In this document: in pieces, positions 13,678-13,701 of the stretch | How positions within the stretch are numbered: the stretch's first letter is position 1 | How the letters are laid out: every line of letters begins with the position of its first letter | NCBI RefSeq assembly: GCF_003334255.1 | Contig: NZ_QOWU01000072.1 | From: Escherichia coli | GTDB taxonomy: Bacteria; Pseudomonadota; Gammaproteobacteria; Enterobacterales; Enterobacteriaceae | Reading direction: 5' to 3' (one strand) | DNA length: 19,162 nt | Program-made: the position numbers and the translations under genes | Notes under the pieces: generated by a model | What the model was told of the DNA's origin: nothing | What the model saw: the letters and a program-made list of their open reading frames with translations, nothing else | Database searches by the model: none

Positions 13678-13701
13678 CGTTATATTGTCGCCTACATAAC
13701 G
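13678..13701. promoter_or_regulatory. ModE operator at the modABC promoter
   Basis: CGTTATATtgtcgccTACATAACG, an imperfect palindrome of the ModE type (TATAT-N7-TAYAT with flanking CG), about 20-40 bp upstream of the modA ATG. Confidence 0.8.

Follow-up and report, generated by a model that had tools for sequence, protein, structure and literature searches.

A conserved ModE operator overlapping the probable core promoter of the Escherichia coli modABC operon

Upstream of the molybdate transporter genes modABC, in the 19,162-nt stretch of Escherichia coli DNA analysed here (hereafter the window), a 24-nt imperfect palindrome, CGTTATATtgtcgccTACATAACG, is found at positions 13678-13701. We regard this palindrome, with little room for doubt, as the E. 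coli modABC operator, at which molybdate-loaded ModE represses transcription, probably by promoter occlusion, and so exerts negative feedback on molybdate uptake. The sequence of the site, its singularity, its match to the ModE consensus, its conservation and the identity of the ModE and ModABC proteins all come from the present analysis. Repression by ModE and its conformational activation are taken from the literature, and the footprint coordinates, the affinities and the transcription start are background from earlier footprinting work. The feature is already known, being the classic, experimentally footprinted modA operator: the locus is that of the E. coli K-12 operator described previously, with no sequence difference (Grunden et al. 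1999; McNicholas et al. 1997; Anderson et al. 1997). As a discovery it therefore carries little weight, but it does show that a real regulator site can be recognised from raw sequence. The features of the region are collected in Table 1.

Table 1 Features of the modE-modABC region, with window coordinates and, for the aligned segments, mean column conservation among 32 Enterobacterales sequences
Feature	Position	Strand	Basis or remark	Conservation
modE, molybdate-sensing regulator	12488..13276	-	262-aa ORF; NF007957 equivalog	
acrZ (49 aa, AcrB accessory protein)	13405-13554	+	RefSeq annotation	
acrZ intrinsic terminator hairpin	13561-13584	+	terminator scan	
FliA (sigma-28) promoter of modABC, TCAACTTCCTGCTTTTCCTGCCGATATT	13593..13620	+	identity to published motif	
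-10 element of FliA promoter, strongly conserved block TGCCGATA	13611-13618		alignment	
FliA-promoter element GCCGATAA			upstream of ModE dyad	
Weak -35-like hexamer TGGGAA	13658..13663	+	inferred from spacing, 17 nt upstream of TATATT	
Core ModE operator, imperfect inverted repeat CGTTATAT-N7-TACATAACG	13678..13701	.	consensus score and arm conservation	
TATATT, presumed -10 hexamer of sigma-70 modA promoter, inside left arm	13681..13686	+	sequence; -10 assignment from published footprint numbering	
First TAYAT pentamer (TATAT)	13681-13685		within TATATT	
Second TAYAT pentamer (TACAT), right arm	13693..13697	+	located by sequence	
Third TAYAT pentamer (TACAT), beyond the originally predicted coordinates	13703..13707	+	located by sequence	
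modA Shine-Dalgarno AAGGGG	13709..13714	+	sequence; AGGAG-like in orthologues	
modABC molybdate ABC transporter operon	13721..16244	+	ORFs, NCBIfam equivalogs, RefSeq annotation	
modA	13721-14494	+	NCBIfam equivalog, 505.2 bits	
modB	14494-15183	+	NCBIfam equivalog, 417.7 bits	
modC	15186-16244	+	NCBIfam equivalog, 640.2 bits	
Left arm of operator			alignment	0.95
Right arm of operator			alignment	0.93
6-nt spacer			alignment	0.41
Upstream flank			alignment	0.44
First 30 modA codons			alignment	0.65

The palindrome and its match to the ModE consensus

Read directly from the window, the letters at 13678-13701 are CGTTATATTGTCGCCTACATAACG. Nine of the 12 symmetric pairs are complementary (18 of 24 positions), which bears out the original prediction of an imperfect inverted repeat here and leaves its coordinates exact. 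The outer six pairs, CGTTAT/ATAACG, are perfect; pair 7 is an A/C mismatch, giving half-sites of TATAT and TACAT that are spaced 12 nt centre to centre. With an exact arm of no more than 6 nt, the palindrome escaped a generic repeat finder (seed 6, minimum length 7), and 'imperfect' is therefore the right word for it. When the 19,162-nt window was searched for the pattern CGTTATAT-N8-ATATAACG with up to three mismatches allowed, a single occurrence was seen, with one mismatch; the expected count is 0.03 and any match at all was found in five of 200 shuffles. Use of the exact 24-mer as a literature search string gave no match.

The E. coli ModE consensus has been quoted as ATCGNTATATA-N6-TATATANCGAT (PMC545781). 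Scored against this, the 28-mer at 13676-13703 agrees at 16 of the 20 specified positions, more than any other 28-mer in the window, the runners-up reaching 13/20. When the window was simulated 300 times with a first-order Markov model, a score of 16 never arose. A ModE motif scan had been put forward earlier as a check on the site, and consensus scoring does single out 13676-13703 (16/20) as the only such match in the window; this unique score, together with conservation upstream of modA orthologues (see below), supports the earlier assignment of the repeat to the type bound by ModE.

The same scoring was applied to MG1655 regions upstream of moaA and dmsA, both known ModE targets. In the ybhK-moaA region a single outstanding site scored 16/20, with the next best at 11/20, and in the serS-dmsA region a single outstanding site scored 17/20, with the next best again at 11/20. 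The moaA site, GACGCTATATAcatgatTACATAGCGAA, and the dmsA site, TTCGATGTATAcaagccTATATAGCGAA, have the same dyad as the modA operator but differ from it in placement and effect. They lie approximately 174-201 nt and 72-99 nt, respectively, upstream of the start codon, whereas the modA operator stands immediately before its gene, and ModE-molybdate activates at these two sites (activation at moa is documented in PMC2408646) but occludes at modA.

Likenesses extend beyond E. coli. G. sulfurreducens has an E. coli-type ModE site (PMC545781), and the Methanosarcina ModE motif, RTTATGT-N8-RCATAAY, is related to the modA operator in half-site core and spacing (PMC12327845). The ModE systems of these other lineages follow the same logic, that is, repression by a ModE homologue (PMC12327845; PMC545781). 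The M. acetivorans regulator differs, however, in having a single Mop domain and in targeting alternative nitrogenases, unlike E. coli modABC, and binding in the M. acetivorans system in vitro is not molybdate-dependent (PMC12327845).

Core promoter, footprint and regulatory circuit

The TATATT hexamer within the left arm matches the -10 consensus at five of six positions, and the same six letters stand there in 35 of 56 orthologous sites. A consensus promoter scan returned no sigma-70 promoter in 13200-13800, because the -35 element is weak (3/6); the -35-like TGGGAA aligns with ATGACA of Yersinia and Serratia.

Grunden et al. (1999, J Biol Chem 274:24308) reportedly describe protection by ModE-molybdate of GTTATATT (-15 to -8), GCCTACAT (-4 to +4) and GTTACAT (+8 to +14). 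The same study is reported to give a Kd of about 0.3 nM in the presence of molybdate and 8 nM in its absence, a motif of the form TATAT-7bp-TAYAT and a stoichiometry of two ModE-molybdate per operator, which we read as one ModE dimer; the third region is said to raise affinity. The three strings occur in the window, in the order given, at 13679-13686, 13690-13697 and 13701-13707, and the modA transcription start presumably lies at about 13694. Only with +1 at 13694 do the three sets of footprint numbers agree with one another, and that position also fits TATATT as the -10 hexamer. The reported footprint maps exactly onto the operator bases and not elsewhere in the modA promoter, and the original prediction stands unrefuted on this point.

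In two respects its description can be improved. The interval 13678-13701 captures the core dyad but leaves out most of the third protected region (TACAT, 13703-13707). In addition, the site had been placed just upstream of the modA Shine-Dalgarno sequence. This is true as far as it goes, since aagggg (13709-13714) and the ATG (13721) do follow, the latter 20 nt after the end of the operator, but it is better to say that the palindrome overlaps the presumed -10 hexamer and transcription start. The third TACAT is poorly conserved (0.62) and is missing even in E. albertii in an alignment of 32 sequences, in keeping with an accessory element. At 13697-13704 the perfect 8-bp palindrome TAACGTTA overlaps both the right arm and the third TACAT; the region made up of TAACGTTA and the third TACAT is E. 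coli-specific, being conserved neither in E. albertii nor in other genera.

In the mechanism that we propose, ModE would take up cytoplasmic molybdate and undergo a conformational change, and the molybdate-loaded protein would then bind the TATAT and TACAT half-sites, reportedly with sub-nanomolar affinity. With the left half-site holding the presumed -10 hexamer TATATT and the right half-site spanning the presumed transcription start, bound ModE would exclude sigma-70 RNA polymerase, and synthesis of the high-affinity molybdate importer would be turned off. When molybdate is scarce, ModE would leave the DNA and modABC would be transcribed, closing a loop of negative feedback on molybdate uptake. 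In the published literature, modABC is repressed by ModE (PMC3149613), and molybdate, on binding to the Mop domain, changes the orientation of the two DNA-binding domains and switches on DNA binding (PMC11672702).

The components of such a loop are encoded in the window. In the RefSeq gene order, modF and modE are on the minus strand, acrZ, modA, modB and modC on the plus strand and ybhA on the minus strand. The ModE ORF scores 509.8 bits against NF007957 (cut-off 369), contains the ModE_repress and Mop domains (TIGR00637, TIGR00638) and can be aligned along its whole length with the solved structures of E. coli ModE, 1O7L and 1B9M (E = 3.7e-169); judged by its sequence, the protein encoded here is a full-length E. 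coli-type ModE (HTH plus di-Mop). ModA, ModB and ModC match their equivalogs (NF007958, NF006939 and NF008355) with scores far above the cut-offs.

The distance of about 400 bp given originally for modE, upstream and on the other strand, agrees with a start codon at 13276 (minus strand), 402 nt upstream of the site. What had gone unmentioned is that modE and modA are not neighbours, acrZ and its terminator (13405..13584) lying between them. The notion of a self-contained molybdate-sensing circuit is supported, with minor corrections: ModE, ModABC and the operator are confirmed, and a FliA promoter also feeds the operon. No second ModE site is found before modE or acrZ, the best score in that region being 11/20, and the loop therefore runs from ModE to modABC to cytoplasmic molybdate and back to ModE, without modE autoregulation. 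No Rfam families were detected near the operator, the only matches being to tRNA and RtT at 1-440. These belong to the left edge of the window, where tRNA genes at 1-73 and 209-281 alternate on the plus strand with RtT-family elements at 8-175 and 315-440.

Conservation and alternative readings

Positions 12432-13932 of the window are identical to MG1655 793800-795300, the mod region being the same base for base, so that adding 781368 to a window coordinate gives the NC_000913.3 coordinate, and the whole window is a 100% match to K-12-type chromosomes. Of 5426 complete E. coli genomes, 5392 carry the 444-nt modE-modA intergenic stretch, in many cases with 100% identity, and the other 34 lack it. 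B-strain derivatives probably account for some of these 34, loss of modABC, modE and modF having been reported for BL21(DE3) (PMC3149613).

To look beyond the species, loci were collected from one genome per species (GTDB representatives) by means of a degenerate DNA pattern encoding the ModA motif VFAAASLTNA. Because selection was by a ModA coding motif, the resulting 120 loci were chosen without reference to the operator. Upstream sequence of 400 nt was available for 109 of these, and in 61 of the 109 a site scoring at least 15/20 lies within 400 nt upstream of modA. At the same threshold, no site was seen in control segments of equal length taken from inside modA (0/113) or from further upstream (0/101). 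The distance from site to coding motif is mostly 130-148 nt (135 nt in E. coli).

A MAFFT alignment was then made of the window with 31 Enterobacterales loci (32 sequences in all), from genera that include Escherichia, Citrobacter, Enterobacter, Pantoea, Erwinia, Yersinia, Serratia, Pectobacterium, Hafnia, Edwardsiella and others. The comparative footprint across the Enterobacterales is clean, with two 9-nt arms strongly conserved around a free spacer (Table 1), and an information-content profile built from 56 loci has the same two conserved blocks as the alignment. At the level of sequence, two conserved blocks around a drifting spacer are the signature of a dimeric protein-binding site.

These comparative data refute the reading of the palindrome as a functionless chance repeat in AT-rich intergenic DNA, to which we attach a negligible probability. 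Short AT-rich palindromes are indeed common, as the one loose match in 5/200 shuffles illustrates, but the consensus score was reached in 0/300 simulations, the position of the site is fixed across dozens of genera and none of the 214 control segments taken together contains a site of at least 15/20. It is also highly improbable that some regulator other than ModE is the main protein to bind here, or that the site is merely a conserved promoter core comprising the -10 and start region. Part of the conservation could reflect promoter function, given that the -10 hexamer lies within the left arm, but conservation is just as high (0.93) in the right arm, which lies downstream of the -10 and is a mirror image of the left. 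Moreover, moaA and dmsA have the same dyad without any overlap with a -10 element, and the modA site matches the consensus derived for ModE itself.

Another reading is that the palindrome works in RNA, where, as a hairpin within the 5' leader of FliA transcripts, it would affect the stability or translation of modA. A FliA promoter at 13593-13620 means that the whole palindrome is transcribed in some mRNAs, but the main sigma-70 transcript would carry the right arm only. The predicted fold of the segment has an energy of -2.7 kcal/mol (z-score +0.37), which 121 of 200 shuffles equal or better. What is conserved, in addition, is base identity in both arms and not pairing, with the A/C mismatch (TATAT versus TACAT) recurring across species. 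On the strength of the z-score the hairpin was rejected, and we consider it very unlikely.

A FliA promoter upstream of the operator

Fitzgerald et al. 2014 (PMC4183435) list in their Table 2 a FliA motif for modABC that agrees letter for letter with the 28-mer TCAACTTCCTGCTTTTCCTGCCGATATT found before the operator; the same table shows modABC RNA dropping from 182 to 61 when fliA is deleted. Earlier, Zhao et al. 2007 had placed a sigma-F-dependent promoter upstream of modA and found that the sigma-F holoenzyme transcribes most of ten tested genes in vitro, modA being among those tested (PMC1935009). In Salmonella, too, modA expression has been reported to be FliA-dependent. The GCCGATA element of the promoter is conserved across Enterobacterales: it is present on the same strand, no more than 120 nt upstream of the ModE dyad, at 30 of 56 loci, and on the opposite strand at none of the 56.

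With the FliA promoter upstream, the ModE operator falls inside the leader of sigma-28 transcripts, transcription from sigma-28 being estimated to start 50-80 nt upstream of the operator. Operator-bound ModE might conceivably form a partial roadblock to sigma-28 transcription, or else the sigma-28 polymerase might read through and so bypass molybdate repression; we offer this only tentatively, and think it somewhat doubtful. Were bypass to occur, motile cells would obtain a molybdate-independent supply of ModABC. A limited literature search found no study of interplay between ModE and the conserved FliA promoter upstream.

Between the FliA -10 element and the -35-like CTGGGAAAA there is an Enterobacteriaceae-specific segment of about 40 nt (13620-13657), in which an inverted repeat resembling TACC-N7-GGTA is found. 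Yersinia, Serratia and Pantoea lack the segment; further examples are found in loci L050 (2140-2211) and L084 (2927-3003). No conserved RNA structure was predicted in the segment between the FliA -10 and the operator. The window also contains, letter for letter, another FliA motif tabulated by Fitzgerald et al. 2014, TAAAGTTCGCGTGATGGCAGCCGATTAT, at 8399-8426 on the minus strand; their table gives it as intragenic in galK (PMC4183435).
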